Of a DNA stretch of 64,000 bases, positions 1,459 through 48,261 are shown piece after piece (position 1 is the first letter of the stretch; each line of letters begins with the position of its first letter). Both the position numbers and the translations under genes were made by a program. Source of the stretch: Octopus vulgaris (lineage: Eukaryota); contig OX597815.1 in the NCBI GenBank assembly GCA_951406725.2, positions 92,938,001-93,002,000 of the forward strand, given 5' to 3'. The notes under the pieces are model-generated. The model was not told the DNA's origin, ran no database searches, and saw only the letters and a program-made list of their open reading frames with translations.

Positions 1459-1890
1459 ATTTCAACAATTGAGGGTAAAATTAATTAATTATTAATCAAT
1501 TTCACCAAGTATTCAGTATGTAAAGGGACCATTTAAGGCGAATTCAAAATATTACATTTTATAAAGGGCTTAGTAAAATAAATTACTTTGCCACATACTG
1601 AACTCATTAGAAATAGCAGCCAAAAAAAAAAAATTTTTTTAGCCAAATTCTAATACTTAAAGAAAATTTCTCTCAGATAGTGCTTACTCAAAATAGCCCA
1701 CGAAGGTATGGGGGTAAAAACATTAAAAAATCACATATGCAAAGGTTATTTGAGAACGTACGTTTCTAGATCAGCCAAATACAATTCGGCATTTCTTTCG
1801 TCAGCCCAAAATTCCTTAATTCGGATTTGTAAACACTGAAAGTAGGAGCATACCCTTTTGGCGACTTTTCACCTCCGAAGATCCGTTCGG
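1459..1890 (-). mobile_element. Short HHR-bearing element (Penelope pseudo-LTR-like) between (TA)n tracts
   Basis: Bounded by (TA)n on both sides and contains a hammerhead motif at 1749-1810. Confidence 0.55.
1749..1810 (-). ncRNA. Type I hammerhead ribozyme motif (CUGACGA core)
   Basis: Minus strand reads tttggg CTGACGA a aga-aat-gccgaat-tgt-atttggc-tga-tct a GAA ACGT A cgtt ctcaaa. Stem II has an internal loop, stem III is the palindrome ACGT, the cleavage triplet is GUA, and stem I pairs only with a bulge. Confidence 0.6.
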
Positions 1891-2226
1891 ATATATATAT
1901 ATCCTTTCAAGGATTATTTTTTTTTAAAAAAAGAACACTAACACTCAATCCAATCCTTTTTCTAACCATAACCTATAAAGTAATGACGGAAAAATGAAAG
2001 TAAACAGATAAGGGAGTGTTTTCAGTAGTGGGTTCCATTACGTAATAAACATAGGAAGGACTGTTTTACGGTAAACAACATAGTCACACAAAGGAGCAGA
2101 GGCCTGTGATGAGGTCATGACGAATGCAAAAGAAACAGGAATGGTGTCATGATAGGCATGTTCCCTATTTGTTCAAAGCTAATAACTGATAGACACATAT
2201 GTACACACCCATGTGTATGTGCGTAC

Positions 2227-2229
<3 letters not shown>

Positions 2230-2257
<28 letters not shown>

Positions 2258-2311
2258 TGTATGTATGTATGTATGTATGTATGTATGTATGTATGTATGT
2301 ATGTATGTATG

Positions 2312-2375
<64 letters not shown>
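2230..2375. repeat. (TATG)n(TATC)n microsatellite
   Basis: Directly visible; source of the spurious MYVC/YLSI ORFs. Confidence 0.97.
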
Positions 2376-2376
<1 letters not shown>

Positions 2377-2470
2377 CCTTCTTCCCTTCTTTCCTGAGCG
2401 CCCAATAATACTTTATTTGTTCCATATCCTCGCGTTGTTGTCTTTTTGTTTTCTTGTTTGGATTAACTTT
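2376..2470 (+). mobile_element. Truncated end of the pseudo-LTR-like family also present at 28556-29030
   Basis: cttcccttctttcctgagcgcccaataatac...ggattaacttt is the reverse complement of 28556-28595 joined to 28863-28915, and ends in (TA)n. Confidence 0.75.
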
Positions 2471-2479
2471 ATATATATA

Positions 2480-3325
2480 CTAGCAGAATTGCCCGGCGTT
2501 GCTCGGGGCTGAATTGCTTGAAAGTACTGTTAATGATTGCACTGAATTATGATGATTATTCAGGCAAATATTGAAATAAGCTTACGGTGGGAAGTAAGGA
2601 CTTAACGCCAAACGTGTGCCATTGCATTGTTTTGGGGGAACCAAATTTCTGATGAGCATTATAGGGGCACTAACTTTAAGTTTGAGAAAGTGTGGTGGTA
2701 GTCCGGGGTGCTCAAAGCAATTGAGTACCTCTATTGGATAGTTGATGACGTCCTCTGGGTCAGGAGTTGTATCGATAGACTGATATACATCGACTTCCCC
2801 AGGAATGAGTTTTAGCATTTCATCATTAATATGGTGAACAGTTTTATTCCTCGGGGCCAGTATAGCCTTTTTGCCAATCCAATCCATATTCTGATAATTA
2901 GCTTGTAAATCTGGGAACACTGCATCTCTGAGATCAGAAGGCGTCTTAACAATGGTACAAATGGAATCGATGGCAATATTACCATTTTCATCCCCTGGTA
3001 TTTTGCCTTCGCCAAGTGCAAGGAGGGTGTGAGGAAATGCTGGTGATGTGATATTACGTCGCATATGAGCACGCATATTGGTGTGAAGTTTGAGAGTTAC
3101 TTCCGTTTATTTTAAAAAATATGCATTAAAATGGAAAAAAATGATGGTAAATTATTTGTAAAATCATAGACTCATCGTAGACGCGCGCTAATACCCAGAA
3201 GGGCTCGATATGAATCACGACTATAAGATACCCGGTTTTGGTTAAACTGCATCGCAAAATGTGGGAGTAGTTAGGAATCTAAATCGGAGTAGACTGACAC
3301 ACAACCTTTCTTTTATATATAAATA
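2480..3325 (-). mobile_element. Non-autonomous Helitron with a PIF1 helicase fragment
   Basis: Minus-strand 3' end is cccgagcaacgccggg (hairpin) then ...gCTAG|t. The 5' end is T(A)TTTATATATAAAAG. The internal helicase fragment is in sense orientation. Confidence 0.9.
2582..3098 (-). pseudogene. Helitron RepHel PIF1-family helicase fragment
   Basis: Motifs TLKLHTNMR, AILAPRN, YPIEVLN..GLPPH.LKLKV.APIMLIRNL...CNGTRL are typical of Helitron PIF1 helicases; truncated at both ends. Confidence 0.92.
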
Positions 3326-3984
3326 CATACATACACACACACATACATACACACACACAAACATACATGCATACATACATATACACATAAACCGAGTAAA
3401 AAATTTCAGTTATCTCTCTCTTTCACACATTACTCTCTGTCTCTTCACACACACTAACAGAAGCACTTCACTTACACAACATACTGTCTGTCTCCCACAC
3501 TCCATCAAACACACACACACACACATGTACATCAATGAGTCCCATGCACGGTAACTTCAAAGGAACTTCCCTCGTCATACAATCGCTTTCTCTTAGTCTC
3601 TTTCGCTCTCATTACTTATGTAAAAAAATAAAAGTTTTTTCTATGTGTGTATACAAGGAAGTGGGAGGCAGAGTGAAAGAATCACTCACTACAGTAAGTG
3701 AATTACTTTCATTTTATTCCTTGCCCACTGTGTGTGTGCGTTTGCGTGTGCTGTAAACCAGACTAAGAAAAGCATTTGACACACACACCAGAATGTGAGT
3801 TTTCTGTAAATTTTGCTTAATTGGAGTTTAAATTTTAAAAACTGGACCTGGCATGACGCGATGCATTGTACTCTCAAAACTGCTAGGTAAATTGTAATTG
3901 AAGAAATCCTATATTGTAGATTTGTATAACTCCCAAAGGGAGGCAGATAAAATCTGCCTTTTATAATAAGAGATATATATATAT

Positions 3985-4190
3985 TTTGCTTTGGGATTTG
4001 GTTTGCAAGATTCTTTATGTGAGTTCGTGTGTTGAAGCATATTCTGTTGTGTCTGGGGTGAGTCATTTTCTTTTTGTGCCTTATAATTTAACACATGCAC
4101 CGGCAAAATTTCCATTTATTTCTTATTTTTATTTCCCCCAAAAGTTTCGTTGCTTCTTGCAGCCTTTTCAATAGTTTTGACTCTGTCCGT
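3985..4190 (-). mobile_element. Short HHR-bearing repeat, same family as 19138-19340
   Basis: Shares tttggtttgcaagattcttt...gtgtgttgaagcatatt...ttgcttcttgca with 19138-19340 and abuts (TA)n. Confidence 0.8.
4138..4174 (-). ncRNA. Minimal hammerhead motif with U3-A8 core (UUGAAAA), partly decayed
   Basis: Minus strand reads cta TTGAAAA g gctgc aagaa gcaac GAA ACTT T tgg, with one mismatch each in stems II and III. Confidence 0.55.
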
Positions 4191-4225
4191 TATTTACATT
4201 ACGTTTCCTTTTGTTTGTTTGTGCA

Positions 4226-4805
4226 CATGTGTGTGTGTGCCTATGAATGTATGTATGTATGTATGTATGTATGTATGTATGTATGTATCTATGTATGTAT
4301 GTATGTATGCGTGTGTATGTATGTATATATGTGTGTGTATGCATATGTATATATGTATGTATGTGTGTGCATTTGTATGTATGTATTCTGCTTAATTCAT
4401 GTACTAGCGTGTCCATGTTTGTGTTTTTTTTAATATATGTGTGTGTATGTGTGCGCATGTGTTTATATATGTATGCATCTCTGTCTCCTTGTGTGTGCAT
4501 GTCAGAGTGTGTGGGCGTGTGTATTTTGCAACTATGTACTGTGTTTGTATGTATGGATGTGCATCTCCATATGTGTGGATGCATGTCTCCATATGTGTCC
4601 TTGTGTGGAGTAAAGTGTGTGTGTATTTATGGTTATGTGTTTCAGTCTCCATTTGCGTACGTGTGGTTGCCTGTTCATATAACCTATATACCTATCCGTT
4701 TGTGTGTTGATCTGTTTAATTTCATAACCATATACTTGCATATATGTGCATATACACATACATATATACACCCACCCATACACACATACATTCATCTATC
4801 TACAT
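4226..4805. repeat. Degenerate (TATG/TG)n low-complexity tract
   Basis: Directly visible. Confidence 0.9.
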
Positions 4806-4867
4806 AACAAACCACTCACTATTTTACTCTTCCTGTGTAAACTGTGGGTATGGGGGTATGATATCTG

Positions 4868-5575
4868 TTATGTATATTCACTATTTAATATTGGGGAAGT
4901 TTCATTTATAAGAACGTACTCCCGTATTTGTCTGAGTGTTGAGTCCTTTGGGTGCTTGGATAAGATGTGGATGTCAAGTTGACCCAGGTTGCATCCATGT
5001 TGGTCTTTAGCATGTTGGTAGAGTATGGAGGACTGTTTTTTGTTGTCATATTGTCTCAGATGTTCATTTAGTTGTTCCGCAATACTCCTAGATGTCTCCC
5101 CTATGTATGTCATGTTCATGTCTTTACAAGCACCTTCTATGCATCTTATGCTGTAAACTACATTTCTAGTTTTACAGTTAATGCCATCGCTAATCCTACA
5201 TACCATGCAGTTATCATTGGTGCATATGGTATTCTCAAAGGGGTACGTCCTACATAGTTGTGATCTGACAGAGTTCCCTAGCTTTTCAACAATCTTAATG
5301 TTGAGTTTGGTCTCCTTCAGAGCATTTCTACATCTATGGGCTAGTTCTCCATGGGCTGTGGCTTCTACAAACATCACTCCTTGATATTTGTCAATTTTGT
5401 ACCACGTGTTCGCCCTGTTTGCTTTGTCACAAGTTCTTTGTATCTAATTCCATTCTTTGTTTCTATATCTAGGGCAGGTACCACTGGTATCATTACATAT
5501 AATGTTACCTGATTTCTTTCTAGACCCCCCCTGTATACTCGAACCCTATCTTTCTGATCATATCCAGAGAACTGC
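4868..5575 (-). pseudogene. Penelope-like retroelement 3' part: RT C-terminus, Cys-rich linker and GIY-YIG endonuclease
   Basis: ORF 4868-5377 has C-x4-C-x2-C..NCKTRNVVYSIRC...TYIGETSRS...NEH...LYQH...H...RQIRE..LIN...P.LN. The upstream frame has QFSGY..KDR. Confidence 0.9.
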
Positions 5576-5579
5576 ATGT

Positions 5580-6243
5580 TTTGGGGTTGCAGCAAGCCAA
5601 TGGTGGTTCTGTGTGTTTACCATCTGATCCTGGTAGAAATTTTTCTCATCTGAGAAAAACCAAAACATGTTCAGTTGGAGGGGATGATTGAGTTTGTTCG
5701 AAAGTGTTGTAGTGCTGTCTTTCCTCTTGTCCTTGATGGCTTGGGATAAAAACTGGCCCTTTCTCATCTTGTATGAGGAATACCAAATGTCTTCATACTC
5801 TACCTGCCTGATAAGACATTCCTATGAACTTGATTGACTTGGAGGGATTGTTGTCAATCATGGCCTGGATCTCACCAACAAATTCAGGAGTTCTTTTCAT
5901 ATCAGAACGATCAGAGTGAATTTTCAATTTTCTTGAGCTGCTGTACCTTTGTAATCACCATTAGACTCATCCAACTCTTTCTGAATCCGCTGCACTATCC
6001 TCACTTTCACACCCAAACACTCTGAAATGATCGTATTGGAGCTTCTAGCATGAATGCCAAGCAGTACAGCATGTCATTTTCAAATTTCTGGCAGAGTGAA
6101 TTGCATCATGGTGCTGTTTTTCTCAAGGACAGTGTCCAACTGTCCCTACTATACTGTGCAGTGGACAAAATCAAAAACAAACAATGCACATGTGCAAAAT
6201 TAAATATATATAATGGTAACAATTTACCCATTGCACTCTGTAT
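5580..6243 (-). mobile_element. Tc1/mariner-superfamily (DD37D/maT-like) transposon, 5' half
   Basis: FWFFSDEKNFYQDQMVNTQNHHWLA covers the first catalytic D. The terminus aatttacccattgcactctg|ta matches 38147-38168. Confidence 0.85.
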
Positions 6244-11020: not shown

Positions 11021-12265
11021 TAATTCTTTGTTATGTTTAAAAAATTGCTAACATTCAGCAACCTTTTTCTGATACAGTTATTTAAAATTGGAATTAAACC
11101 TATAAAGTACTCATTATTTAAACAATATTTTTCTCTATGAAAATTATTGTGATTATTATTAACATTGTCTTTATTTTTATTTCTATTTTTATCAAGATAA
11201 ATATTATCGGGATCATTTACATTATTATCTTTTATATTATTTTTAAACATCTATTATTATTATAGAATCTAATACTATCCTTATATCTTGTCTTAGTTAA
11301 TGCTTCATTATAATAAGGTGCATGTTTTAGGAAGCTCTCATAATTCAATGAAAGCATCAAAGTTCTATTTCCTATATTATCTATCAATGATTTCTTAATT
11401 GAAGCGGGGTGATTACTGTAGGCATTTATATATTTCAGGTTTTCGTTAATTTTATGGAATGGTTGGGTTATACCTGTTAAAATATTAATATTAGCATATA
11501 AAAAATTAACATTATAATTCTCTTCATATATAGTAATACCTAAAACATATCTATTAAAGAACCTATATAATTTCTTTTTATATATTTCAAGTGTTCTATT
11601 TGTGCAGTTTTTGGTTATTAGTAATAGGTCATCTCTGTATAATCCACCTTCTAAGTTTCTTGACTGGCTTCCGTACTGGTGGCACGTAAAAAGCACCAAT
11701 CCGATCGTGGCCGTTGCCAACCTTGCCTGGCATCTGTGCCGGCGGCATGTAAAAAGCACCCACTACACTCACAGAATGGTTGGCATTAGGAAGGGCATCC
11801 AGCTGTAGAAATACTGCCAGAACAGACTGGAGCCTGGTGCAGCCTTCTGGCTTCCCAGATCCCCGGTCGAACCGTCCAACCCATGCTAGCATGGAGAACG
11901 GACGTTAAATGATGATGATGATGATGATGATGATGAAAATCTATTTGAATGAATTTATATTTATTTTAATTTTCAATATTATAAAACCATTCTAATGTGT
12001 CTTTAGTACTACCCCATAAATTTAAGTAATTCAGTTTATTTAATTTATTGATATATTTATCTAATATTATTTTATTCAATTTCCCTGGATCAGATTTGCA
12101 TGGGCAAATGAGTCTGACTTTTGGGTCTGCATAAAAATTATCTTTATGATCTTTTAATGTGATTCTTGGGTGCATAAGTACATAAGGTTCTGTTTCATTA
12201 TCTATTTTAGATTTCATCATTATTACTTTATAGGTCTTATTTAAATTATAAAGAGTATTCTATAT
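11021..12265 (-). pseudogene. Penelope-like reverse transcriptase relic, interrupted by an RTE tail
   Basis: RITLKDHKDNF..PKVRLICPCKSD.GKLNKIILD, FIQID, then GGLYRDDLL, VNFL, YINAYSNHP, YNEAL...Y. Confidence 0.9.
11657..11935 (+). mobile_element. RTE LINE 3' UTR fragment with (GAT)n tail
   Basis: ggcacgtaaaaagcacc...ggcattaggaagggcatccagctgtagaa...cccatgctagcatgga...(gat)n, as at the end of the RTE at 14160-15249. Confidence 0.9.
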
Positions 12266-12809: not shown

Positions 12810-13032
12810 GGGAGAGTTTGCGAAAAAAACAAAAGACGAAGACAGGTGGTGTACAAAACAAACAGATGTATTAGTATAACGCTCAGGAATAGAAAAAGTC
12901 TTTTATGTTTCGAGCCTACGCTCTTCTACAGAAAGGGACACAGAAAAAAAACAAGGAGAGAAACAACAAGAGAAAAAACATGTGTGTAGTGGCTAACGAT
13001 CTATCATGGCGACTAGTGCCGGACAGAAGGGA
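12810..13032 (-). mobile_element. Short HHR-bearing element inserted in (TA)n
   Basis: (TA)n on both sides, a second copy at 29030-29205, and a hammerhead at 12900-12935. Confidence 0.75.
12900..12935 (-). ncRNA. Minimal hammerhead motif with variant core CUGUAGA
   Basis: Minus strand reads cttt CTGTAGA a gagc gtag gctc GAA ACAT A aaag. Stems I and II are perfect; ACAT is one CpG-type transition from the palindrome ACGT. Confidence 0.65.
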
Positions 13033-14159: not shown

Positions 14160-15249
14160 GAGCTCAGAGAGCTCTTACCTCTGCTGGTGACAAAAGGCCT
14201 CTCGCACAGAGTGAAAGGCAGACTGTATGATGCGTGTGTACGAACAGCCATGCTACATGGCAGTGAAACATGGGCCGTGACTGCTGAGGATATGCGTAAG
14301 CTCGCAAGAAATGAAGCCAGTATGCTCTGATGGATGTGTAATGTCAGTGTTCATAATTGACAGAGTGTAAGTACCTTGAGAGAAAAGCTGGACCTAAGAA
14401 GCATCAGTTGTGGTGTGCAAGAGAGATGTTTGCGCTGGTATGGTCATGTGGCGAGAATGGATGAAGATAGTTGTGTGAAAAAGTGCCACACCCTAGCGGT
14501 TGATGGAACCTGTGGAAGAGGCAGACCCAGGAAAACCTGGGACGAGGTGGTGAAGCACGACCTTCGAACTTTAGGTCTCACTGAGGAAATGACTAGAGAC
14601 CGAGTCCTCTGGAAGTGTGCTGTGCGCGAGAAGACCCGGCAGGACAAGTGAGTCCATAACCCGTGGCCTTCTACTTGGGACGGAGCCAGCCTACGTATGC
14701 ATACCTTCCCTTCTTGGGACACAAAACTCTACTTGTGAAGACCTGTTGAGGCAAGTGAGGATCAGAATCGAAATCGATCAATGGAAATTGCAGATGTGTT
14801 ACCAGTGCCGGTGGCATGTCGAAACTCTACTTGTGAAGACCCGTTGAGGCAAGTGAGGATCAGAATGGAAATCGATCAATGGAAATTGCAGATGTGTTAC
14901 CAGTGCCGGTGGCATGTAAGAGAACCTTCCGTTTCGCGACCGTTGCCAGCACCGCCCCGTTTCGTGTCCATTGCCAGCCTCGCCTGGCCCTCGTGCCGGT
15001 GGCACATTAAAAGCACCATCCATTCATGGCCGTTTGCCAGCTCTGTCTGGCACCTGTGCGGGTGGCACGTAAAAAGCACCCATTACACTCACGGAGTGGT
15101 TGGCGTTAGGAAGGGCATCCAGCCGTAGAAACACTGCCAGATTTGACTGGGCCTGATGAAGCCTTCTGGCTTCACAGACCCCAGTAGAACCGTCCAACCC
15201 ATGCTAGCATGGAAAACGGACGCTAAACGACGATGATGATGATGATGAT
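14160..15249 (+). mobile_element. 5'-truncated RTE-clade LINE (ORF2 end, 3' UTR, (GAT)n tail)
   Basis: RELLPLL...KGRLYDACVRTAMLHGSETW...LRWYGHVARMDEDSCVKKC...GRGRPRKTW. The UTR has a ~98 bp tandem duplication at 14722-14915. Confidence 0.95.
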
Positions 15250-15389
15250 TTATACCTAAAAGTATATATTATATATGTCCCACTGCATTTTCCCCTTCTT
15301 GTGTGTGTGTGTGTGTAAATCCTATCAGGTGGTGCTATTAAGTTAGACATGGCCTGAACCAATCTTTGGTCAAAACATATCTAAGTTAC

Positions 15390-16360
15390 CATCGCTCTGA
15401 CTCCACATCCAGCACCTCCACCCTTCTCTGCCTAGCAGAACTTGTCCTCACTCCCAACTGCTTTACACTCGCAGAAGAAATTTACCAGCAGTTCTCTGGC
15501 ATCGCTATGGGAATGAGAATGAGCCCCAATTTTGCCAAGTTATTTTTTGGTTATGTTGAGACCCAAATCTTCTCACAATTCTCTGGACTAACCCCAGAGC
15601 TATATGGTTGCTATATAGACAACCGTATAGATGCCACCTCCCTTTTCCATGAACAGCTCTCCAATTTCATCTCTTTCATTTCTAACTTCCATCCTTCTCT
15701 CAAATTTACCTCTACCATCTCTGACACTTCTGTAAACTTCTTGGATATCTATCCCTCCATTGATCCCCCTCTCCCACTCTCTCATCACCTCTGCCTTCTT
15801 CAAACCTATGGACCCCCACTTCTACCTCAACTTTTCCTCTTCCCATCTCTCCCACACCAAACAGGCTATCCGCTACTCCCAGTTCCTCTGCTTCTGATGC
15901 CTGTGTAGCCAGGATCAGGATTTCAAGATCCTGTCCCAATACCTGGCCTGCTTGTTTATGCAATGTAGATACCCATCCACCCTTGTCTAAACTGCCCTTA
16001 TCTATGCTCATCAAATCAATTTGCATTACTACCTTCTCTCCTTCCCCACTCCGACTCCCCAACCACATTCCCTTTCCCCTCCTTTTCTACCCCTCCATCC
16101 TACTCCATCGTTGGAGGATCTTGTGAGTCTTCCGTCACCTCCAGTTAAATCCCACCACTGTCCCTATTTTCTCCAGCATGCCCTTGCTTTCCTTCAAATG
16201 CACCTGTAACCTACACGATCTACTGGTCTGTAGCTCCCACCTTACCTCTAATCCAATCCCATCCAGATCCTTCCCTTGCTCCAGATCCCGTTGTCACACA
16301 TGTCCCTTCATCACTAACACCACCTCCCTCACTGGATCCAACCAGTACACCCTCTACACT
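15390..16360 (+). pseudogene. Penelope-like (Neptune-type) RT relic with Cys-rich linker
   Basis: LAELVLT.NCF...YQQFSGIAMG..MSPNFA.LF.GYVE...YID...FHPSLKFT...VNFLDI, and later SFPCSRSRCHTCPFI. Confidence 0.9.
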
Positions 16361-18510: not shown

Positions 18511-18790
18511 CAACCATTCTTCACCCTCTCCTGTCCCAGAAAGCACTTTCTCTTTGTCTTTCAACTTCCAGTCATTTCAAAAATGTAACTACATGTGAAT
18601 TGTTGGTGACGTTTTTCCTCCTCCTTGCTTTTTCTTTGGACTTTCCTATGTTTCCTGTTTCAGAAGTGCTATGCTGGAAACATAAACCAACAACTCTTTT
18701 CCTTCTCTGAGCATCTTATTCATACTTTACATCTGCTACGTCCGCACATTGTTGTTTTTTCTTGTCTTTTTCTCTGTTTTTTTTTAATTA

Positions 18791-19139: not shown

Positions 19140-19340
19140 TGCTTTTGCATTTGGTTTGCAAGATTCTTTTTGTGAATATGTGTGTTGAAGCATATTTTAT
19201 TGTGTCTAGGAAGAGTTATTCTGTTTTAATACCTTATTAATTAATACACTCACCAGTTTTATTTCCACTCATTATTTAATTTTCCTAAAATTTTCATTGC
19301 TTCTTGCAACCTCTTCAATAGCTATTGACTCTCTCCATTA
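19138..19340 (-). mobile_element. Short HHR-bearing repeat (family of 3985-4190)
   Basis: Similar to 3985-4190 and abuts (TA)n. Confidence 0.8.
19285..19321 (-). ncRNA. Minimal hammerhead motif, core UUGAAGA (U3.G8)
   Basis: Minus strand reads cta TTGAAGA g gttgc aagaa gcaat GAA AATT T tag; stem III is the palindrome AATT. Confidence 0.65.
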
Positions 19341-22025: not shown

Positions 22026-23640
22026 CCCTTCAATTTTTTTCTCTTTGACTTCCAAAAAAAGAAATTAGAGAAAGATGCAGATTTGTGCCTCATATAGCTA
22101 GCCAGAGGCGATTGCCCCTCAGAGCTAATCAACAGCAACATTAGTCCTATTTATCTGGACTGCCATGTTAGTTTAGCAATAAATATTAATACCCAGTACT
22201 CCTGTTGTATCTCTCCTTGAGAGATTTAGAAATTATAACATTTCTATTTTTGAAAATCAGTGAATGTGTTTCTCTGAATATTTATAAATAAAACCTTTGA
22301 ATAGAGGTCAGCAGCAATCCTTGCTCCACATTGATAAGAGACAATTACCCCAAAACTGGTCTGTGGATGCCAAGCCAGCAAGGGGAAGTTGATGACCTCC
22401 CCTGTTCAAAGGTTTATGGATGCCGATTTGTGCATCATATAGCTAGCAAGAGGGGCTCGCCTCTTGGAGCTAATCAACAGCAGCATTTGTCCTATTTCTC
22501 TAATACCCAGTACTGCTACTGTATCTCTCCTTTAGAGAGATTTAGAAATCATAACATTTCTATTTTATATATATATATACACACTCACACACACACACAT
22601 TATTTTACTTGTTCCAGTCATTTGATTGCGGCCATGCTGGGGCACCACCATGATAATGGGTTTTTTTTTTATCAAGCAACTAGGTTGCATTGGTGGTAAT
22701 CATCTTGGCTGAGATTAGCAATTAGTGCATGACAATGGTCTGGTGTATATTTACATCAATCTCTTTAACCAGCTTATGGCAGTGATTCATTCATTTGCCT
22801 GCATGCAGTAATGGTAACCACGCCAATTGAGGTCAGCACTCAGTGCGTGATAATGTTCAGCATATATTTACATCAACCACTTTAGTGCAAGTATTGTTTA
22901 GTTATATATCCCTGTTCCGGAGAGCTCATGCAGTTTTATTCCTGAATAAGATCACTCAATAGTACAAGTCAGATCAACTTCATCAAATCACATGAATTCA
23001 AAAACTGACTTTAGTATGATAAATTTCAAAACAAGGGTACCACACACAGTGGCAGATCACATTGTTTTATTTACATTTTCCTTTTGCTTTACATACTGTG
23101 TATTTCTTTGAAGCATTTGTCTTCTTGGCAGTGGGATGAAACAGTTGTGAAAATGTCCATGTCCCTTCACCATGCAGTGAGGAGAGAGTGTGGCATAGGG
23201 ACGTCCTTGCGTTCTGTACTTTGGCAGGTCTGATGCTTCTATCATTTCACGGACCAACAGATTCCTGAATGTCAGTCCATCCCCCACACTGCCGAGCATC
23301 AGCCAAATCAAATGTGAGTTCATGATACACATGTCAACTATATACAAGAAAATTATTTTGTACCATTCCACAAATTTTCTCACCAATTTGTCTCATCACC
23401 AGCTGATCTGAGTGATCAACCCTACCCCATCCCTTCATTATATGAAACAACTACACTCAGTTTCATTATGGTATTACCATCCACATCTTGTTTTCTAGTG
23501 TCCCTCATGCTTGCAGAATGCATTGTGGGTAACATGCAGATGTTCTTGTCATGCCACTATCAGTGCATCAGTAGGCTGTTTTCCCCTTTCAAAGTTCTAT
23601 CTCATGAAAATTGGGTAGCATGCTTTTCTGGCTTGGCTTG
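22026..23640 (-). mobile_element. Decayed piggyBac transposon
   Basis: Minus-strand frames at 23005-23640 give WHDKNICMLPTMH, YNEGMG, VEWYKIIFLYIVDMCIMNSH and C-terminal PLCVYPCFEIYHT. TTAA|CCCT at 22022 is a possible terminus, so the left boundary is tentative. Confidence 0.75.
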
Positions 23641-28556: not shown

Positions 28557-29030
28557 AAGTTAATCCAAACAAGAAAACACAAAAAAACACAACAATTTCC
28601 AGATTATCTTTGCCATTTCAGCTGGTTATACTCGAGATTGCTCCAATCTGGCCAGCCCCAAGGAAAAACTAAGCTAAGAGCATTAGATTCCTTGGAAGAA
28701 AACAGTAAATGTATACAAAAACAAGGATGGAAAAACAGAGAAATGTTACACAAATACAAATGCAAATAACAGGACATAACAACAGGTGTCTTTCGACTAA
28801 GGACGAATTAAATTAAGCTGGCGTGTGTGGAAGTAAATCCCTACGGCAGTGACATTAGTTTTGACGTGGAACAAATATAGTATTATTGGACGCTCAGGAA
28901 AGAAGGGAAGAAAGGAGGGTTTAACATTTCGAGCGGAGCTCTTCGTCAGAAACATAGGAGAAGGAAAGATCCCGAGAAGGGAAGACAGAGGAAAAAAAAT
29001 CGCCAACAGTACACACGAGGTCACATATAG
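28556..29030 (-). mobile_element. HHR-bearing pseudo-LTR-like element with a 273-bp templated insertion
   Basis: Abuts (TA)n and matches 2376-2470 apart from the insert at 28593-28865; hammerhead at 28919-28953. Confidence 0.8.
28919..28953 (-). ncRNA. Minimal type I hammerhead motif (CUGACGA)
   Basis: Minus strand reads gttt CTGACGA a gagc tcc gctc GAA ATGT T aaac; ATGT is one transition from the palindrome ACGT. Confidence 0.75.
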
Positions 29031-29205
29031 TTTCAAATTTACAGAAAAACAAAAGACGAAGACAGGTGTACAAAAAACAAGCAGGGGGATTAGTTTAAAG
29101 CTCAGGAAAATTAGAAAAGTCTTTTATGTTTTGAGCCTACACTCTTCAACAGAAAGGAATAAGAGGAAAGAAATGGAGAGAGATAAACTGTGTAGAGTTC
29201 AGCAG
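29030..29205 (-). mobile_element. Second copy of the 12810 family with a dead hammerhead (29121-29156)
   Basis: cttt CTGTTGA a gagt gtag gctc AAAA cata aaag; the conserved GAAA is mutated. Confidence 0.75.
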
Positions 29206-30146: not shown

Positions 30147-30182
30147 TATATATTATTTAATAGACACAATACATGTTTTTAT

Positions 30183-30237
30183 GTGGTACAAATAATTTCA
30201 TATGTTGAGAAATACCTCAGACATATTCATCAGGCAC
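30183..30237 (-). ncRNA. Hammerhead motif, left pseudo-LTR
   Basis: gtgc CTGATGA atatgtctgag gtatt tctcaacatat GAA ATTATTTGT A ccac; core intact, stems I and III partly decayed. Confidence 0.7.
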
Positions 30238-30939
30238 AAACCACATATCATAACTAAAAATTGAATGAGAGAAGAAATGTGAAAAATTGAGAAGGAAGTG
30301 TATAGAAAACATGGGAGATTAAAAAATGGAAAAAGTAAAATAGGTAAAGGCTGGAAAGATATCAACTAGTTAATCAGGAATAGGTGGAATTTTCCAATTC
30401 TTCAAAATGTACTTAGACATTTGTTTGCAACTGCTGAAAATTTCAGATCTAGAGTTCAATAGTGAGGGATTTTAAATCTGAAAAGGATCTGAGCTCTTTC
30501 AGCTAAATATAGCTTACATTTATTTGATCTGTTAACATAAGGTGTGGATTTTCAATTATTTTCCACTTAATCACATGTGGTGTTGCATTAGATTCCAAAC
30601 AACATATGTGGCTAGCCAACATAGTAGCATTACCTTTGTCCTTATATCAGATGGAGATTATGTGATTGGCATGGCAATTTTTAAATTCTCCTTCACATAA
30701 TCCAATATTGGTTTTCTTAACTGTTGTATTTTCATCTAGTGTTCAGTAACTTCTGCCTTATATATGAAAGATTTAATCATACATTGTTGGTTAAGTGGAC
30801 AGGATCCTGGGTCTCAACAGTTCCTTTTTTCACTTTTCGCTTTCCAATTTTTAACCTTCTACATTTTCTGTATGCTTCCTTCTCAAATTTTCACATTTCT
30901 TCTCTTATTCAATTTTTAGTTCATTATGATATGTGGTTT

Positions 30940-30994
30940 GTGCCTGATGGATATGTTTGAGGTATTTCTCAACATATGAAACTATTAGTAGCAC
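30940..30994 (+). ncRNA. Hammerhead motif, right pseudo-LTR
   Basis: gtgc CTGATGG atatgtttgag gtatt tctcaacatat GAA ACTATTAGT A gcac; stems I and III intact, A9G change in the core. Confidence 0.7.
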
Positions 30995-31289
30995 ATAAAA
31001 ACATGTATTGTGTCTATTACATAGTATTTATCTCTCACCAGATGGAGTACTTTTTTGTTGATCTTACCATCATGGAATAGTACATCATATATATATATTT
31101 GTATGATGGAGCACCGCCTTTAGTCAAGCAAATCAACCCCAGAGCTTGTGCTTTGTAAGCCTAGTACTTATTCTATCAGTCTCTTTTGCTGAACCGCTAA
31201 GTTATGGGGATGTAAGCACACCAGCATCGGTTGTTAAGTGATGTTGGTGGGGAGGAACAAACATAGACACTCAAGCACACACACACATA

Positions 31290-35383: not shown

Positions 35384-35452
<69 letters not shown>

Positions 35453-35520
35453 ACTACTACTACTACTACTACTACTCTAGTAGTAGTAGTAGTAGCAGCA
35501 GCAGCAGTAGTAATAGTAAT
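35350..35520. repeat. Compound trinucleotide microsatellite with inverted symmetry
   Basis: (att)(gtt)(cta)n(ctg)n(cta)n followed by (tag)n(cag)n(tag)n. Confidence 0.95.
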
Positions 35521-36906: not shown

Positions 36907-37216
36907 GTACTTGCATAGCAAGTGACCTGATCTGAGATCATGTGCTGGAATGAAAACAATTGCAGCGTGGAAGGTGTTTATAAGCCTTTTAAGAAACACA
37001 CAAAATCCGTTAGATTCACTTATACATTTAGATTTAATTTGTCAAAATATTTTCGTTGCTTTGAGACTGCGACCTGTTCACTGACAAAATTCCGTGCTGC
37101 ACAGTCTCAAAGCGACGAAAATATTTTGACAAATTAAATCTAACTGTTGAAGTGAATCTAACGATTTTGTGTGTTTCTTAAATGGCTTATAAACACCTTC
37201 CACACTGCAATTGGGT
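36907..37216. mobile_element. Foldback HHR-bearing element with a 16-bp target-site duplication
   Basis: Inverted arms span 36957-37213; tcaataaatacagagt is present at 36891-36906 and 37217-37232. Confidence 0.9.
37038..37088 (-). ncRNA. Minimal hammerhead motif with swapped G3-C8 core (GUGAACA)
   Basis: Minus strand reads tttgtca GTGAACA g gtcgc agtctcaaa gcaac GAA AATATT T tgacaaa. Stem I is 7 bp and stem III is the palindrome AATATT; the other arm has gcgac, giving a perfect stem II. Confidence 0.7.
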
Positions 37217-39459: not shown

Positions 39460-42242
39460 AGTTTTCAGAGTCGGCACTGTCAATGTAGGCACATTGAGAT
39501 GTAGGTCTAGTGAGATTGTTGAGATACTTGAACCGAGGCATGTTGACGTATGCTGCATCTAAGAGGTAAGGTGAAGAGTTTCAGCCAGGTTCCTCACAGG
39601 CAAGACACATAAGTATAGAATCTACTGGGAAGGTAACAATGATGGAATAGGTGATGTGCAATAGAATGCTTAAGCTCAGGCTAGTCTTGCAGAATAGTAT
39701 AGCTACAATTATCTCTACCTACACCCCAAAAGCAAGCCTAACAAATGAACAGAAGGACCATTTTTATGATATTCTTCTGCAGGCTACCTCGAAGATGAGG
39801 GACAATGATCTCATCTTTGAGGCTGAGGATTTCAATGGGCATGTTGGATGGCAGCCTGGCTTCTTCTATGGTGTACATGGGTGCCATAAAATTGGTTCCC
39901 AAAACGAAGAGGGAATGAAGCTACTGGGATTCTGTGATGCAAATAACCTATTGATCTGTAGCACCAATTTCAGGAAGCCAGGTAGCCAGATCAATTAAAT
40001 TCTCATCAGAAAGCAGGATGCGTGGTTGCTTTTAAATACAAAGACCCTCCCTGTTGAAGAATGTACACCTACACCCACCCCAGCATAAACTAGTCATTAG
40101 TGACTTTAGACTTCAGACCAGAAGGATGCCAAGAAGCATACCAATCTAGAAAAGAAAGATTTGGAAGCTTAAAGACCCTTCATATGGACAGAGATTTAGG
40201 GACATCCAAATTGAGAAATTTGATGATAGGGAGGAAGAGCTACAGACTTGTGACATAGAGGGCAACTGGGATCTTGTACAGCTTGCTGAGTGACACAGAC
40301 TAAATCTGTGGTTGGTGCAAAGTTCCTTCAAGACCTAGGGTAACATGGTGATAGAACAATACTGTAGACAGGGCCATTAGAGCAAAGAAACAGGCCTGGA
40401 AGAGTTGGGGTAGCAGGGCACTGTATCAGATAGCCAGAAGGGAAGCTAGGAGACAGGTATATCTAGCCAAGGGAGAAGCAGAAAAGACGTTTGACTATGT
40501 TCAGTGATGTGAGGGCCAAACAACTGAAATATTTTGGATTGCAAGACAGTGTGTGAGAGAAAATTGTGATGTCATAGGAGAGAAATGTGTTTGTATGGAT
40601 GATGGTGCACTTGCATTTAATGATTCTGCAAAGGAAGAGGTTTGGTGATACCACTATGAAAGACTGCTGAACATGGAGAATAAATTGGAGGAGGAGAGTC
40701 TGCCAAATGTTGACCCAATTGCGAGACAAATTACCTGAATCAACAGTACCCTTATCGATAAAGCAATTAAGGATATGAAGAGAGAGAAAACCCCGGCCCA
40801 TAAGGCATCATTACTGAGATGCTTAAAATATCTGGTGGTGTGGGTTATGGTTTAGTCACCCGTATTGTAAATCAGGTGGTTCATGGAGTCATACCCAATG
40901 ACTGGTGTACCTGCACCATAGTGAATTGCTACAAAGATATCAAATTGTTGGATCAGGTGATGAAAGTTACGGAGAGGGCCATAGCCCAACTAATTAGGAA
41001 AAGAGTCTAGATGAGATGCATTTTGGTTTTGTTCCAGGTAGAAGCACCACTAATGCTATATTTCTGGTAAGGCAGCTGGAGGAGAAATACCTAACCAAAG
41101 ATAAACCTCTGTACTTAGCATTTGTTGACTTGGAGATGCACCTGGTTTAAGTTTTGGACACATAAAAGATGCAGCAATATCAGAGGAAGTTTAACAGGGA
41201 AACTAGCTTTTGACTCCATCGACTGTCAGGGGGACAAGCTAAAAGTAGTAGATAGCTTCCATTATTTAGGTGACCAAATTAGTAGTGGAGGTGAATGCCC
41301 TGAGTGTAGCTGTGAGAATAAGATTAGGATGGGCAAAGTTCAGAGAGCTCCTACTTCTGTTGGCAACAAAAAACTTATCTCTCAGGCTGAAAGGCAGATT
41401 GTATGATACATGTGTGTGAACAGCTATGCTACATGGCAGTGAAACATGGGTTGTGACAACCGAGGACATATGTAGGCTTCAAAGAAATGAAGCCAGTATG
41501 CTTCGCTGGATGTGTAATATCAGTGTGCATGTTTGACAGAGTGTAAGCATCTTGAGAGAAAAATTAGGCATAAGAGGAATGACAGCACTGGTATGATCAT
41601 GTGATGCATGTGGATGAGGACAGCTGTGTACAGAAGTACCGATCTCTAACTATGGAGGGAACCTGTGGCAGCGGTAGACCCAGGAAGACATGGAACAAGG
41701 TGGTGAATCATGATCTTTGAACTTTGAGTTTCACAGCAACTGAGGTCTTTGGCAATATGCTGTGATTGAGAAGACCTGACAAGCCAAGTGAAATTGTAGT
41801 CATGACTGATGCTGGTGTCATGTAACTGGTACCTGTGTTGGTGGTGCATAAAGAGCACCTTTCAAGCATTGGGTCTCACAGAGGTGAGTTCCTTTAGAGT
41901 GTTGGGCCTCTCAGAGGCGAGTACCTTTTGAGCTTTGGGCCTTATGGAGGTGAGTTCCTTTTGAGTGCTGGGCCTCTCAGAGGCAATGACCGAGACCTTT
42001 GGAATTATGTCGTGCTTTAGAAGAAGATCCCTCAAGCTGAACAAAATCACAGTTGTGACAGATGCCGGTGTCATGCAAATGGCACAATTAAGCAGCCATT
42101 ACACAGAGTAGTTGGCTTTAGGAAGAGCATCGAGCTGTGGAAACTGTGCCAAATCAGACTGGAGTCTGGTTCAGTCTTGCAGCTTGCCAGTCCTGGTCAA
42201 ACTGTCCAACCCATGCCAACATAGACCATAGACATTAAATGA

Positions 42243-42245: not shown

Positions 42246-42280
<35 letters not shown>

Positions 42281-42283
<3 letters not shown>

Positions 42284-42660
42284 CACTGGCATGACTGTGT
42301 AGTAAGAAGTTTGCTTCCCACCCACATGGTTCTGGGTTCAGTACCAGTGTGTGACTCTTTGGAGAAGTGTCTTTTACTAGGTCAATCAAGGCCTTCTGAG
42401 TGGATTTGTTAGATGGAAGACAATCATGTGTGTGTGTGTGTGTGTGTGTGTGCACATGCATATATGTATGAATATATATATATATATGTATCTATGTGTG
42501 TGTGTTTGTTCCCCACTACTGCTTGATAACTGGTGTTTGTTTACATCTCCCATAACCGAGCAGTTTGGCAAAAGAGACTGATAGAGTAAGTACCAGGCTT
42601 AAAAAGAAGTACTGGGTCGATTTGTTCAAGTAAACACTTGACCACAATCCAACGGTTGAA
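42281..42660 (+). mobile_element. tRNA-derived SINE, near complete
   Basis: ggcactggcatgactgtgtagtaagaagtttgcttccca.ccacatggttctgggttcagt (A/B boxes), (TG)n middle, and 3' part ...gatagagtaagtaccaggctt. Confidence 0.85.
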
Positions 42661-42674
42661 ACACATATATGTAT

Positions 42675-43992
42675 GACATGGAGAAAGCCTTTGACAGGGT
42701 CCACACTTCTTTATCTGGTGGTCATTGCAGATAAGTAGATGATTGGTTGGTGAGAGCTGTACAAGCCATGTACAGGGATGCTGTCAGTAAGGTGTAGGTT
42801 GGCAGTGAGTATAGCAACAAAGTCAGTGTACAGGATCAGTTCTTAGCATCCTCTTGTTCTTCATAGTCTTCATGGCTAAAACAGAGGAATGTCAAGGTCT
42901 GGAAGCAAAGAGCTTTAGAGTTAATTAAGCAAAGATGAAAATTTTAGTAAGTAGGAAAACAGACAAATCACAAATCCCTTTAAGGAGGTGACCCTGCTCT
43001 ATATGTAGAAACGGTGTAGGTAGAACTCCATAAGGTGTACCCAGTTCAAGCTATGGACACATAAGAAGTGCAGCAATATCAGAGGAAGGTTAACAGAGAA
43101 AGTAGTCTTTGTGTGTAGCAGACTATAGGTACAATAGACACTTGAAATGCTCAGAAAATATAAATTGTCAAAAGGTGGGGGGATACTAAGAAGTAGTAGA
43201 CAGCTTCCATTATCTAGGTAGCCAAGTCAGCAGAGGAGGAGGATGCTCTGAGAGCATAGCTGCTAGAATAACAATGGACTGGGCAAAGTTCAGAGAGATT
43301 CTACCTATGTTGGTAACAAAGGACCTCTCCCTCAGACTGAAAGACAAATTGCATGATGTCTGTGTGTGAACAGTCATGCTACATGACAGTGAGACATGGG
43401 CTGTGACTGCAGAGGACATGCAAAGGCTTGAAAGAAATGAAGCTAATATGCTCTGCTGGATGTGCAATATCAGTGTGCACAAACGACAGTGTAAGTGTAA
43501 AATTGGGTATAAGAGGCATCAGATGTAGTGTGTAAGAGAGAAGGCTGCACTGGTATGGTTATGTGATGTGTATGGACGAAGACAGCTGCATGAAGAAGTG
43601 CTGATCTCTAACTATGGAGGGAAGCCGTGAAAGAGGTAATCTCAGGAAGATGTAGGACAAGGTGGTGAAATATGATCTTTGGATGTTGAGTCTCATGCAG
43701 GTGTTGACAAGTGAGTGCGACTTTTGGTGATTTGCTGTGCTTGAGAAGACACGTCAAGCCAAATAAAATCATAGTCACAGCCAGTGTTAGTGACACATGA
43801 AAGGTACCCCTGCCAGTGGCATAAAAGACACCTTGCACACTCTGGAGTGGTTAGTGTTAGGAAAAGCATCCAGCTGCAGAAACCAAGCCAAAACAATCTG
43901 GAGCCTCATGCAGCTCTCTGGCTTACCAGCTCCAGTCAAACTATCTTACCTATATTAGCATAGGAAACAGATGCTAAATGATGATGATGATG
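42675..43992 (+). mobile_element. Decayed RTE LINE, RT to tail
   Basis: DMEKAFDRV, QGSVLS.LLF, Cys/His finger, FHYLGS, ETWAVT, LHWYG; (GAT)n tail. Confidence 0.92.
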
Positions 43993-44012
43993 TATGTGTG
44001 TGTGTGTGTGGG

Positions 44013-44046
<34 letters not shown>

Positions 44047-44119
44047 CATATATATACATACACACATGTATGTATGTATATACATATATCATCATTATGT
44101 ATATATACATATATATATA

Positions 44120-44636
44120 TGTAATATTTTTTTATATATATTAAAGAATACGTGTATCATGTTTAATGTATTAATATTAATATTTTTAAAGTTCCTTATC
44201 ACCTCTGACGAGGCCTATGGTTATATATATAAGTATCCTATTTTTAAATGCCTACAACCTCAGTATGTTGACACCTATAGGCAATAAAAATAAAATTAAC
44301 TACTTTTAGCCATAGGCTGAAACAGCTGTAAGAAGTGATTTTAATGATTTCAATAATTTATATTATGACTTTTATAATTTGTATTCTTATCTTATAAGTA
44401 TTGAATTATAAGATATATATGTACGCTATTGAGGTTCTCATTTTAATAATTTAAAAATTAAAAAATTTTTTTTAAATATAAAAATATAATAATTTATAAA
44501 TATAAATTTAAAAATTTCAAATTTTAAATTTTATATTCTATATATATATATTGTACATTATATTATTTATTTTTTTATGTTTTGGTTTATGTCTATCACT
44601 GTTAGTGTTGCCTAATAGTGGTTTTATCTCTAATTC

Positions 44637-44645
<9 letters not shown>
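44120..44645 (+). mobile_element. AT-rich HHR-bearing pseudo-LTR-like element in (TA)n
   Basis: Flanked by (TA)n, hammerhead at 44198-44339, and a 3' motif shared with the palindrome at 19777-20023. Confidence 0.75.
44198..44339 (+). ncRNA. Type I hammerhead motif with intact core and very large loop II
   Basis: atcac ct CTGACGA ggcctatggtta [~83 nt] tagccataggct GAA ACAGCTGT A ag aa gtgat; predicted cleavage after GUA at 44330. Confidence 0.85.
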
Positions 44646-44681
<36 letters not shown>

Positions 44682-45962
44682 TAAATATAAATACACACGC
44701 ACACACACACACACACATACATCTTTGTATATGTATGTATATGTATGTGTGTGTGTATATGCATTGCATCAACTATTCATGAAGATAAACTATGGTTTAT
44801 TTACTTTAAAGTTCAGTGTTTTATCAATAAGGGCAAGTGACTGTGCATGTGAGTTGATAAAGAAATGGAAAAAACAAAAGTAAAGCATTTTACTAGTTTT
44901 ACAAGTAGGTAAAAGCAAGGTTAATAACTATCACCAGTTATGTGCAATCTCAAGTAGGAGCATCTTACATGGTCACTCAATTTGCTAGAAATAGCAGATA
45001 AATTCTTCCTCATATAATATACAACTTAAAAAAGGAATGATGAGTCTTAAAAAAGACGAGCCTGTTATAGTTGGAATGCCTCTGAACATAGGTTTGCTTG
45101 ATCAGATCTTAACTGGGCCTAAACAACAACAAATTTTTGTAACTTATGATAAACTGTTGGGTTGGCAGAATCAGCAGATTGTTGTGGGTTTTAGTTGCAT
45201 TCCTTTACATTTTGAGTTCAAATCCTATTGAGGCTGCGTTTATCTTTCATCCTTCTGAAATCAATAAAATAAATACTATACATATACTGGGGAAGATAAA
45301 GCGGACTGTTTCTTCTCCCTAAATTTGTAGCAAGGCAGGATATAACAGATTGTTCCTTTCCTCCAGATTTGTAACTGTCTCAATGTTAAAAAACAAAGCA
45401 ATGTAAAACTAAATGAGGAATCTCTGTGGTCATTCAAACTGCTAGAAATAGTAGTTAAATTTCCCTGAACTAACACACTACCAACTAGAAAAAGATTATC
45501 AAATAATGTCCTAAATACCGTTATAAAATTGGGATAGTGACAGGTGGAATGCTTTGAATAGGTCTATTTAACCTGGCGCTAAACAACATCAATTAATACA
45601 ATAATGCTTTGTATATCTCTTCCTCCCTTAGATATACCTGATTAAACAGACCTATGCTATGTAGGTAGGTATTCAAATGGTTGGGTGAAATTCACACATT
45701 AAGTTAGAATACCATGCTTCTATCAAGCTGAGAACTGCACTGCATGCTCTGACATGCAATGGTTTATCATGTGAAGTCCAGGCATGTGTCTCCTTTATTG
45801 TCTTTGTTTTTGAATAAAAATTCAGAAAAAATTCAATGCAGCTGAGAAGAATAGACTCGTAGTTCTCTACAACATAACACTAGTATTCTTTTAAAATCCT
45901 TCACCCAATTTTATCTAATTCTATCACATTGTTAAGAGAAGAATGTGTGTGTGTGTGTATAT

Positions 45963-47850
45963 ATCATCATCATCATCATCATTTTTACCGTCCGCTTTCC
46001 ATGCTAGCATGGGCTGGACGATTTGACTGAGGACTGACGAACCAGATGGCTGCATCAAGCTCCAATCTGATCTGGGAGAGTTTCTACAGCTGGATGCCCT
46101 TCCTAACGCCAACCACTCCGAGGGTGTAGTGGGTGATATTTAAATTTCACTGGCACAGGAGCCAGTCAGGCGGCACTGGCATCAACCATGTTTGGATGGT
46201 GCTTTTTATGTGCTACCATCATGGGAAGCCAGCCAGATGGCACTGGCATTGACCCATGCTTAAGTGGTGCTTATTACATCCCACCAGCACGGGTGCTAGT
46301 CAGGCCGCACTGGCATCAGCCACAACTACAATTTCCATTTTGATTTCAATCTTGATTTTGATTTTGATTTTACTTGACTCAATAGGTCTTCTCAAGTTCA
46401 GCGAATCGCCCAATGATTCATGGATACTTTTAAATGGGCTGGTTATGTGATACTGGTGTAAGCTACAGTTGTGATATTACTTTACTTGCTGGGTCTTCTC
46501 AATCACAGCATATCTCCAAAGGTCTTAGTCTCCTGTCATTGCCTCTGTGAGGCCCAATGTTTGAAGGTCATGCTTCACCACCTCATCCCATGTCTTCCTC
46601 TTCCACAGATTCCTTCTACTGTTAGGGTGTAACGCTTCTTCACACAGCTCTCATCCATATGCAGCATATGACCATACCAGTGCAGTCGTCTCTCTTGTAC
46701 ATCACATCTGATGCTACTTATGTCCATCATGCTTACACTCTGGTGTGCATGCACACTGACATTACACATCCAGCGAAGCATACTAGTTTCATTTCTTTCA
46801 AGCCTACATATCTCCTCAACAGTCATGGCCCATGTTTCATTGCCGTGTAGCATGGCAGTTTGCACATATGCATCATACAGTCTACCTTTCACTCTGAGCA
46901 AGAGGCCCTTTGTTACCAGCAGAGGTAGGAGCTTTCTGAACTTTGCCCAGGCTACTTTTATTCCAGTGGCAACTCTCTCAGAGCATCCACTCCTACTACA
47001 GACTTGGTCACCTAGGAAGCTGAAATTAGAATTTATTCCACTGGCATGTGATGGAATCTGTCTTCTGAACATCTTCAGTGTTTATTACCCCTGTGCATCC
47101 TTTGATATTACTGCACCTCTTATGTGTCCATAGCTTACACTGGGTACATCTTATGGAGCTTCTACCTCCACCTTTTCTACAGATTGAGCAGAGCCATTTA
47201 CCTGAAGAGGCTTGTGATTTGTCTGCCTTCCTACTTACTAGGACTTTGGTTTTTGCTACATTGACTCTAAGGTCATTCGATTCTAAACCTTGCTTCCACA
47301 CCTGAAATTTCTTCTCTAGTTCTGGTTGTGATTCAGCTATAAGAGTAAGGTCATCAGCATAGAGAATTCTTGAATTCTTCTGTTATTGCCTGGAGGACTA
47401 TGAGGAATAAGAAGGGGCTGAGGACTGATCCTTGGTGAACCCCTACTTCTTAACTATACTCGTTGCCAACCCTCACCTTACTGACAGCATCCCTGTACAG
47501 CTCTCACTAACCATTCGTCTATCCCTAGTTTCCACATTGACCACCAGATAAAAGATCAGGGGACCCTGTCAAAGGCCTTCTCCAAATCAACAAAAGCCAA
47601 GTACAGAGGTTTATCTTTGGCTCGATATTTCTCCTGAGATATATATCAGTGGTGCTTCTGCCTGGCACAAAACCAAACTGCATCTCATCTAGGTTAACTC
47701 TCTCCCTATTCAGTTAGGCTATAACCCTCTCCGTGACCTTCATCACCTGATCCAGCAATTTGATACCCCTGTAGTTATTTCTATCTAAAGCATTACCTTT
47801 ACCTTTGTAGCAGTTAATTATGGTACTGCTACACCAGTCATTGGGTATGA
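45963..47850 (-). mobile_element. Decayed RTE LINE, RT to tail
   Basis: IPNDW...[51 protein letters not shown], Cys/His finger, LHWYGH; (CAT)n at the left end. Confidence 0.95.
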
Positions 47851-47858
47851 CTGTATGT

Positions 47859-47889
<31 letters not shown>

Positions 47890-47890
47890 G

Positions 47891-47933
<43 letters not shown>

Positions 47934-48038
47934 CATATGCACACATATATATATATGTATTTGTACATATATATGTGTGTGTGTCTGGGTGTGTATATGT
48001 ATGTGTATATATATGCATATATATATATATATATATAT

Positions 48039-48149
48039 GATCAGATTGGAGCCTGGCGCAGCCTCCTGGCTTCCCAGACCCCAGTCAAACCATCCAACCC
48101 ATGCCAGCATGGAAAACAGATGTTAAGCGATGATGATGATGATGATGAT
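48039..48149 (+). mobile_element. RTE 3' tail fragment
   Basis: tggagcctgg..gcagcc...cccatgccagcatggaa...(gat)n. Confidence 0.85.
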
Positions 48150-48261
48150 AAACCAGGGTCGAAATTCCCCCAGGACACCTGATGAAATCTGGAGAGTACA
48201 TCAGCCGAAACATGTTAACAACAAACAAGATGAGGACAAATATCTGTCAAATGTAAATAAT
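48150..48261 (+). mobile_element. Short pseudo-LTR-like fragment with a decayed hammerhead (48174-48216)
   Basis: gacac CTGATGA aatctg gagagtacat cagcc GAA ACATGT T; core intact, stems I and II damaged. Confidence 0.55.

Follow-up and report, generated by a model that had tools for sequence, protein, structure and literature searches.

Hammerhead ribozyme motifs with complementary 3-8 core pairs, including a reversed G3-C8 pair, in Penelope-like and short repeat families of Octopus vulgaris

Minimal type I hammerhead ribozymes have been described in Penelope-like retroelements (Cervera and de la Pena 2014, PMC4209133), where they possess an extra base between positions 9 and 10.1, a G10.1-C11.1 pair, a palindromic minimal stem III and frequently U17, and occur as both single and inverted copies. 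These features are shared by the motifs described here from the genome of Octopus vulgaris (assembly GCA_951406725.2), eleven of which lie in a stretch of 64,000 nucleotides (contig OX597815.1, positions 92,938,001 to 93,002,000 of the forward strand; hereafter, the window). The core pairs U3-A8 (in natural hammerheads and Penelope elements) and U3.G8 are already in print, with PMC4209133 listing the former for Schistosoma mansoni and the latter for Saccoglossus; the motif lists of that paper, as far as available, contain no G3-C8, U6, C4 or C9 core and no cephalopod. For the giant squid genome, 235 Rfam hammerheads were reported without detail (PMC6962438). The C3G/G8C exchange is known from engineered hammerheads, in which it is partly active in vitro (PMC11167929, PMC9901934, PMC8495972, PMC3884650); a natural G3-C8 core was not found in the literature searched, which contained engineered examples only and lay outside Lunse et al. 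2017 (the largest survey) and some supplements. In contrast to these laboratory mutants, G3-C8 occurs here naturally, as the majority state of a family that numbers thousands of copies, and unlike the hammerheads of PMC4209133, C-G, U.G, U-A and G-C pairs occur within one set of related elements. It is this naturally occurring G3-C8 core in high copy, together with the series of cores among related elements, that deserves further attention.

Repeat families and their 3-8 pairs

Most motif copies in the window are decayed. Inserted copies decay, and the family rather than the single copy is therefore the proper unit of analysis. Pattern searches were made on the whole 2.8-Gb assembly with the core positions left free, each with a reversed-pattern control; the controls gave no match for the counts of families A, B, C1, C2, E and F, and two for a pattern covering the cleavage site of E. 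Core states per 100 copies were tallied by eye on the first 100 matches listed for each pattern. Alignments were made for 30 loci per family (10 for G), these being the best matches to the window copy, for which reason core states were taken from the free-core searches instead. A sequence-only reading of the window had placed eleven hammerhead motifs, each by one of its ends, in at least six families; all eleven are present, and they were assigned to nine genome-wide families or subfamilies (A, B1, B2, C1, C2, D, E, F and G). Four further families (H, J, K and M) were identified beyond these sites.

Family A has 7,500 matches in the genome, with G-C at positions 3 and 8 in 94 of the first 100 (the remainder being 3 U-C and one each of G-G, G-U and C-C). 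Family J is an old relative of A whose copies are 29% diverged from their own majority. Among 21 copies of J, G-C is also the commonest state (the rest are G-U, A-U, A-C and other decayed states), and it is kept although position 7, loop II and the palindrome have changed. Family B (5,054 matches) is chiefly U-A (93 of the first 100, with 3 U-G, 3 C-A and 1 C-U), and within it B1 forms a distinct U.G subfamily, with U3.G8 in 20 of 26 copies. U-A is likewise found in family K, in 99 of the first 100 of its 499 matches.

The remaining families are C-G. C1, the largest seen (26,471 matches), has C3 in 100, G8 in 98 and U6 (A6U) in 90 of the first 100, and its free position 7 is varied (28 A, 19 C, 13 G, 40 U) while C3 is constant. 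C-G was found in 93 of the first 100 for C2 (16,990 matches), with C4 (U4C) in 64; in 98 for M (3,337 matches), with C9 (A9C) in 96; and in 92 for E (5,361 matches). Most copies of E have a complete cleavage site, with 12 of the first 100 lacking three bases there. All 71 matches of F are C-G, as are all 10 loci of G and the consensus of the aligned D loci; for H, an old C-G set sharing the stem I of A, the search pattern itself required C-G. In every one of the 13 family majorities the bases at 3 and 8 are complementary, as C-G in eight (C1, C2, D, E, F, G, H and M), G-C in two (A and J), U-A in two (B2 and K) and U.G in one (B1). Pairing of positions 3 and 8 at the level of the family, as the sequence-only reading had proposed, is supported, as is its expectation that CUGANGA-based searches would miss variant cores. 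Family A is also present in four sequencing runs (bearing three organism labels), whose variants are listed only up to window position 37070, short of positions 3 and 8.

The type I minimal fold was confirmed by a descriptor for the majority sequences of A, J, B1, B2, C1, C2 and K, and by eye for D, the majority of E, G, H and M; the majority sequences of H, E, F and G fail the automated descriptor. The invariant bases U4, G5, A6, A9, G12, A13 and A14 are all present in A, J, B1, B2, D, E, F, G, H and K. C1, C2 (in its majority) and M depart from this core, at U6, C4 and C9 respectively, and are hammerhead-like variants rather than canonical members. The CUGUAGA core of C1, which the sequence-only reading had listed among the C-G cores, is non-canonical, U6 being the family state. 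An A6U core was not found in print as far as searched, and unread supplements may list such variants. In an unbiased genome sample of 800 kb, evenly spaced on four chromosomes, the descriptor with positions 3 and 8 left free gave 27 matches (17 of them C-G), against 7, 4 and 1 in three shuffles, which is more than expected by chance. Further C3-G8 hammerheads of other families were seen in this sample (L392:7383+, L351 and two copies in L406).

Kinship of the elements and co-variation

Identity of the endonuclease regions is 46-55% among A, B and M, and 73% between B1 and B2. For the DNA downstream of the motif, the alignment scores of A-J, A-B1, M-A and M-B2 were each reached by 0 of 300 shuffles, with weaker signals for A-B2, J-B2, M-B1 and M-J (1-3 of 300). 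Judged by these sequence comparisons, A, B and M are relatives, and in the set made up of A/J, B and M, the pairs G-C, U.G, U-A and C-G all fill the same structural slot. Comparison of A with B by eye shows two stem I pairs altered on both sides, and a palindrome that differs in length with its palindromy kept. Position 8 is altered only in the three lineages with an altered position 3, and always to a partner; by hand arithmetic, the chance that three changes fall into just those 3 of 11 lineages comes to about 1 in 165, before ascertainment bias. In an alignment of 24 rows, all 24 are paired at 3-8, and on three of five measures none of 500 shuffles did as well.

Several points weigh against reading these patterns as selection on an active fold. 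The 24 rows were hand-picked from 54 with undecayed copies favoured, which makes the alignment an illustration and not a test, and A and B were themselves picked by a reader looking for pairing. The non-canonical pairs arose in approximately three events (A/J, B and K), G-C once and U-A twice. A C-G/U-A change in stem II matches CpG decay, and 14 of 50 loop-6 relatives, counted by hand, are mismatched at 3-8, which was read as decay. The descent of H is shown in part: one of its two copies beats the shuffles against M, and its consensus gave 1 of 300 against B2 and no signal against A, J or B1. Finally, some big families have core changes fixed without compensation, namely A6U in C1, U4C in C2 and A9C in M, at the frequencies given above.

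Element anatomy and the motifs of the window

Neptune and Nematis elements possess a CX2-5CxxC linker before a C-terminal GIY-YIG endonuclease (Craig et al. 2021, PMC8557442), an arrangement shared by A, B and M, while D fragments share a CxxC near their end with the Hydra clade; the likeness to these clades rests on motifs read by eye. Flanks of (TA)n, tails and inversions are also shared with the Penelope-like elements of that study. An endonuclease linkage screen was made on loci reaching 1.5 kb; the A set of 88 loci included 30 selected for their longer 5' ends. Endonuclease sequence precedes the motif, in the same orientation, in 8 of 30 B1, 6 of 60 B2, 8 of 30 D and 4 of 88 A loci (the last with an A query). 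Some further matches fall on the other strand, as expected of inverted arms. A protein search identified one A copy (L461) with an unbroken frame of 1,025 amino acids (aa) containing a GIY-YIG domain (E 1.8e-5) and a CX3CxxC linker; reverse transcriptase (RT)-like motifs were read in it by eye, and no Pfam RT match was found. An intact G3-C8 motif follows 1.0 kb after this frame, and then (TA)n. The same search identified the sister family M, with frames of up to 1,312 aa and a hammerhead in 6 of the 7 loci fetched (L462-L465, L467 and L468; e.g. L462:1529+), the seventh being rearranged. For B, D and M the coding evidence covers the 3' part of the open reading frame (ORF) only. A, B1, B2 and D represent the 3' termini of Penelope-like elements truncated at the 5' end, and GIY-YIG sequence lies upstream of them on the same strand. 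The assignment to type I minimal hammerheads and the Penelope link, both put forward by the sequence-only reading, are supported. No coding partner was found for C1, C2, E and G in the 30, 30, 30 and 10 loci examined, respectively.

An inverted upstream copy was present in 31 of 88 A, 13 of 60 B2, 1 of 30 B1, 10 of 30 D, 15 of 30 E and 13 of 30 F loci, some loci being two views of one insertion. The D pair of the window is such an inverted insertion, with endonuclease fragments between its arms that sit upstream of the minus-strand hammerhead. Two 3' ends were found in A and in M. In M, two same-strand motifs 4.6 kb apart lie on either side of the frame of 1,312 aa, a candidate pLTR-ORF-pLTR direct tandem. 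A direct A pair 3.5 kb apart proved to be a larger duplication and not a full element, and a 3.9-kb K pair contains unrelated frames.

Some 20 nt before stem I, the A loci L301-L330 contain a stretch rich in pyrimidines that resembles a branch point and ends in CAG. The CAG-ending stretch precedes the start point of many A copies (473 exact matches), and by analogy with what has been described for Drosophila Penelope it is possibly an intron end beside the hammerhead.

Family F forms tandem arrays of 565-bp units, with adjacent units 99.8% identical, a 5' copy in inverted orientation and flanking (TA)n. Arrays of four near-identical units at L214:581-3011 and L218 suggest very recent amplification. 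The unit is covered in three sequencing runs guessed to be RNA, none of the listed runs being on record as such, and its coverage shows no pile-up of ends, which contigs could not reveal. Family K forms tandems of 362 bp. Both appear to fit non-LTR retrozymes. Like the metazoan non-LTR retrozymes (PMC7229834; bioRxiv 10.64898/2026.07.22.740005), they are short, presumably non-coding tandems with one type I hammerhead per unit; unlike them, they show Penelope-like inverted 5' copies, and the F unit exceeds the 170-400 nt quoted for these retrozymes. Longer copies of E (L187, L195 and L203) open with a head that by eye resembles a tRNA, with parts like an A and a B box, and an (AAT)n spacer, and ARAGORN found no tRNA in 10 E loci; E is possibly a SINE-like element with a hammerhead. 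For family G, with its structured loop II insert, a first look gave 935 candidates in the genome.

The motifs and linked relics of the window are given in Table 1. The A motif has a 7-bp stem I, a 5-bp stem II with one mismatch, an AAUAUU palindrome and U17. All aligned copies of F have an A.A at the base of stem II. The G motif closes only through its long stem II (folding z -3.75). Single-strand folding is significant in only 2 of 9 window copies, as expected for decayed, dimer-type motifs. Of the eleven copies, those of B1 and C2 pass the scored descriptor with positions 3 and 8 free. A stricter descriptor performed no better than shuffles on the window (1-2 matches versus 0.47 shuffled), and none of the 100 Rfam matches of the window (E<=1) is a hammerhead.

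Table 1. Hammerhead motifs and linked coding relics in the window (window coordinates; for motifs, the location of core position 3 is included)
Feature	Location	Strand	Position 3	Remarks
Family F hammerhead, CUGACGA, C3-G8	1746..1812	-	1804	Partial copy of 565-bp unit, tandem elsewhere
Subfamily B2 hammerhead, UUGAAAA, U3-A8	4133..4179	-	4171	About 0.7 kb downstream of same-strand endonuclease relic
Penelope-like ORF 3' end, family B2	4868..5503	-		CX4CxxC linker and GIY-YIG, PF01541 E 3.4e-6
Family C1 hammerhead-like motif, CUGUAGA, C3-G8 with A6U	12896..12939	-	12931	Genome family alignment
Subfamily B1 hammerhead, UUGAAGA, U3.G8 wobble	19280..19326	-	19318	Descriptor passed
Family C2 hammerhead, CUGACGA in window copy	28915..28957	-	28949	Descriptor passed
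Decayed C1-type copy, CUGUUGA, G12A	29117..29160	-	29152	
Family D hammerhead, CUGAUGA, long stem II	30178..30241	-	30233	One arm of inverted insertion
Broken endonuclease-like D fragments	30406..30742	-		tblastn E 1e-7 to 4e-15 against frames from D loci
Family D hammerhead, second inverted arm	30936..30999	+	30944	Private A9G
Family A hammerhead, GUGAACA, reversed pair G3-C8	37035..37089	-	37081	Genome family alignment
Inverted truncated second copy of A 3' end	37102..37210	+		Directly 5' of A motif
Family G hammerhead, CUGACGA	44197..44342	+	44205	12-bp stem II around ~95-nt insert, 8-nt palindromic stem III
Family E motif, CUGAUGA	48171..48226	+	48179	Window copy without three cleavage-site bases

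The window consists mainly of microsatellites and decayed repeats, and generic repeat finding was dominated by the former. Further fragments of K and C2, which the sequence-only reading did not list, lie at 22074-22495, 2375-2457 and 18632-18769. RT-like relics were seen by eye at 11235-11660 (-) and 15342-15905 (+), with no Pfam match and no linked hammerhead. A Pif1-type helicase fragment (2582-3106, minus strand; PF21530, E 3e-11) is likely a Helitron relic. Four related LINE-like coding relics were found at 14161-14540, 41251-41693, 43193-43622 and 46575-47081, and a long, near-perfect inverted trinucleotide repeat (CTA/TAG) at 35423-35520 forms a hairpin.

Altered cores and the role of cutting

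The function of Penelope-like hammerheads has been called unclear, with the suggestion that they may be parasites of the element (PMC8557442). The hammerhead of a Penelope-like element from an anole cuts only with the protein of the element, the C3G/G8C double mutant partly rescues the Penelope hammerhead, and catalytic mutants still insert in vitro, while RNA ends at the cut site were not observed (PMC11167929). The G:C swap was the one rescue in this core region when all pairs of changes were scanned, all others giving low activity (PMC9901934). Natural U4C lowers activity in vitro and supports viroid infectivity, and natural A6C retains low activity (PMC3088659).

The motifs are rather likely to be type I minimal hammerheads located at the 3' end both of Penelope-like retroelements and of short elements that likely borrow their enzymes, with the 3-8 pairing likely reflecting long-term selection on an active fold and cutting likely dispensable for a single burst. 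Under this explanation, two motifs in a tandem transcript would pair through their stem III palindromes, the protein of the element would help the motif to fold, and cleavage after position 17 would trim or circularise the RNA. Lineages with a working core would persist longer, and those with damaged cores (A6U, U4C and A9C) would still amplify, a tolerance that may let a lineage cross the mismatched 3-8 state to G3-C8. A long-term benefit without a need in every burst would account for the conserved 3-8 pair as well as for the damaged cores. U17 in A and J would avoid a G3-C17 mispair; as a G3-C8 mutant was reported to have higher activity when position 17 was G than when it was C (no data were displayed; PMC3884650), U17 may have eased the swap in A/J. 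A bolder form of the same explanation is offered tentatively, as a possibility: one Penelope clade would provide a natural active-site series (C-G, U.G, U-A, G-C and A9C), in which A would be the first natural, recently amplified G3-C8 ribozyme. It would cut as a dimer assisted by the protein and would have been reached by way of dead intermediates, since cutting would be optional per cycle and favoured in the long term.

That all the cores cut, and that cutting is needed in every transposition cycle, appears unlikely. It would require A6U, U4C and A9C to be slow but sufficient with protein help, for which the viroid role of U4C, the weak activity of A6C and the protein dependence of the anole motif speak, together with the stems, palindrome and GAAA retained even in variant families. 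The altered cores, missed in the sequence-only reading, weaken the case that all motifs cut: the three changes are predicted to weaken cutting, they are carried by the two largest families (C1 and C2) and by the young M with its long open frames, and C9 of M could pair with the catalytic G12. The cleavage-site bases missing from some E copies count against it too, as do the unimpaired insertion of catalytic mutants, the lack of RNA ends at the cut site, and the success of the Naiads, which thrive without canonical hammerheads (PMC8557442).

Retention of the fold only as a protein-binding or priming structure, with catalysis lost and the 3-8 pairing structural or a coincidence of few events, is quite improbable. 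The same altered cores in both largest families and in young M would fit it, as would the small number of independent 3-8 events. Against it stand the conservation of G5, G12, A13, A14, A15.1 and U16.1 in the family majorities shown and, subject to the bias noted above, the partner changes at position 8. Last, the view of the sequence-only reading that every family is a non-autonomous retrozyme mobilised in trans has hardly any likelihood: it suits the tandem units of F and K (K lying outside its sites) and the families C1, C2, E and G, found without coding partners in the loci examined, but it is refuted for A, B1, B2, D and M, which lie downstream of endonuclease frames of their own.

A natural change from C-G to G-C requires two transversions, with a mismatched state between them, and is difficult to account for unless the active fold is under selection. 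In this genome alone, the motifs overlooked by CUGANGA-based censuses number in the tens of thousands. A ready set for the comparison of cleavage with transposition is provided by the sister elements whose cores show G3-C8, U3-A8, U3.G8 and A9C, two of which possess long unbroken frames, and they bear on whether the hammerheads of Penelope elements do anything, given that their function is held to be unclear (PMC8557442) and that cutting is unnecessary for insertion in vitro (PMC11167929).

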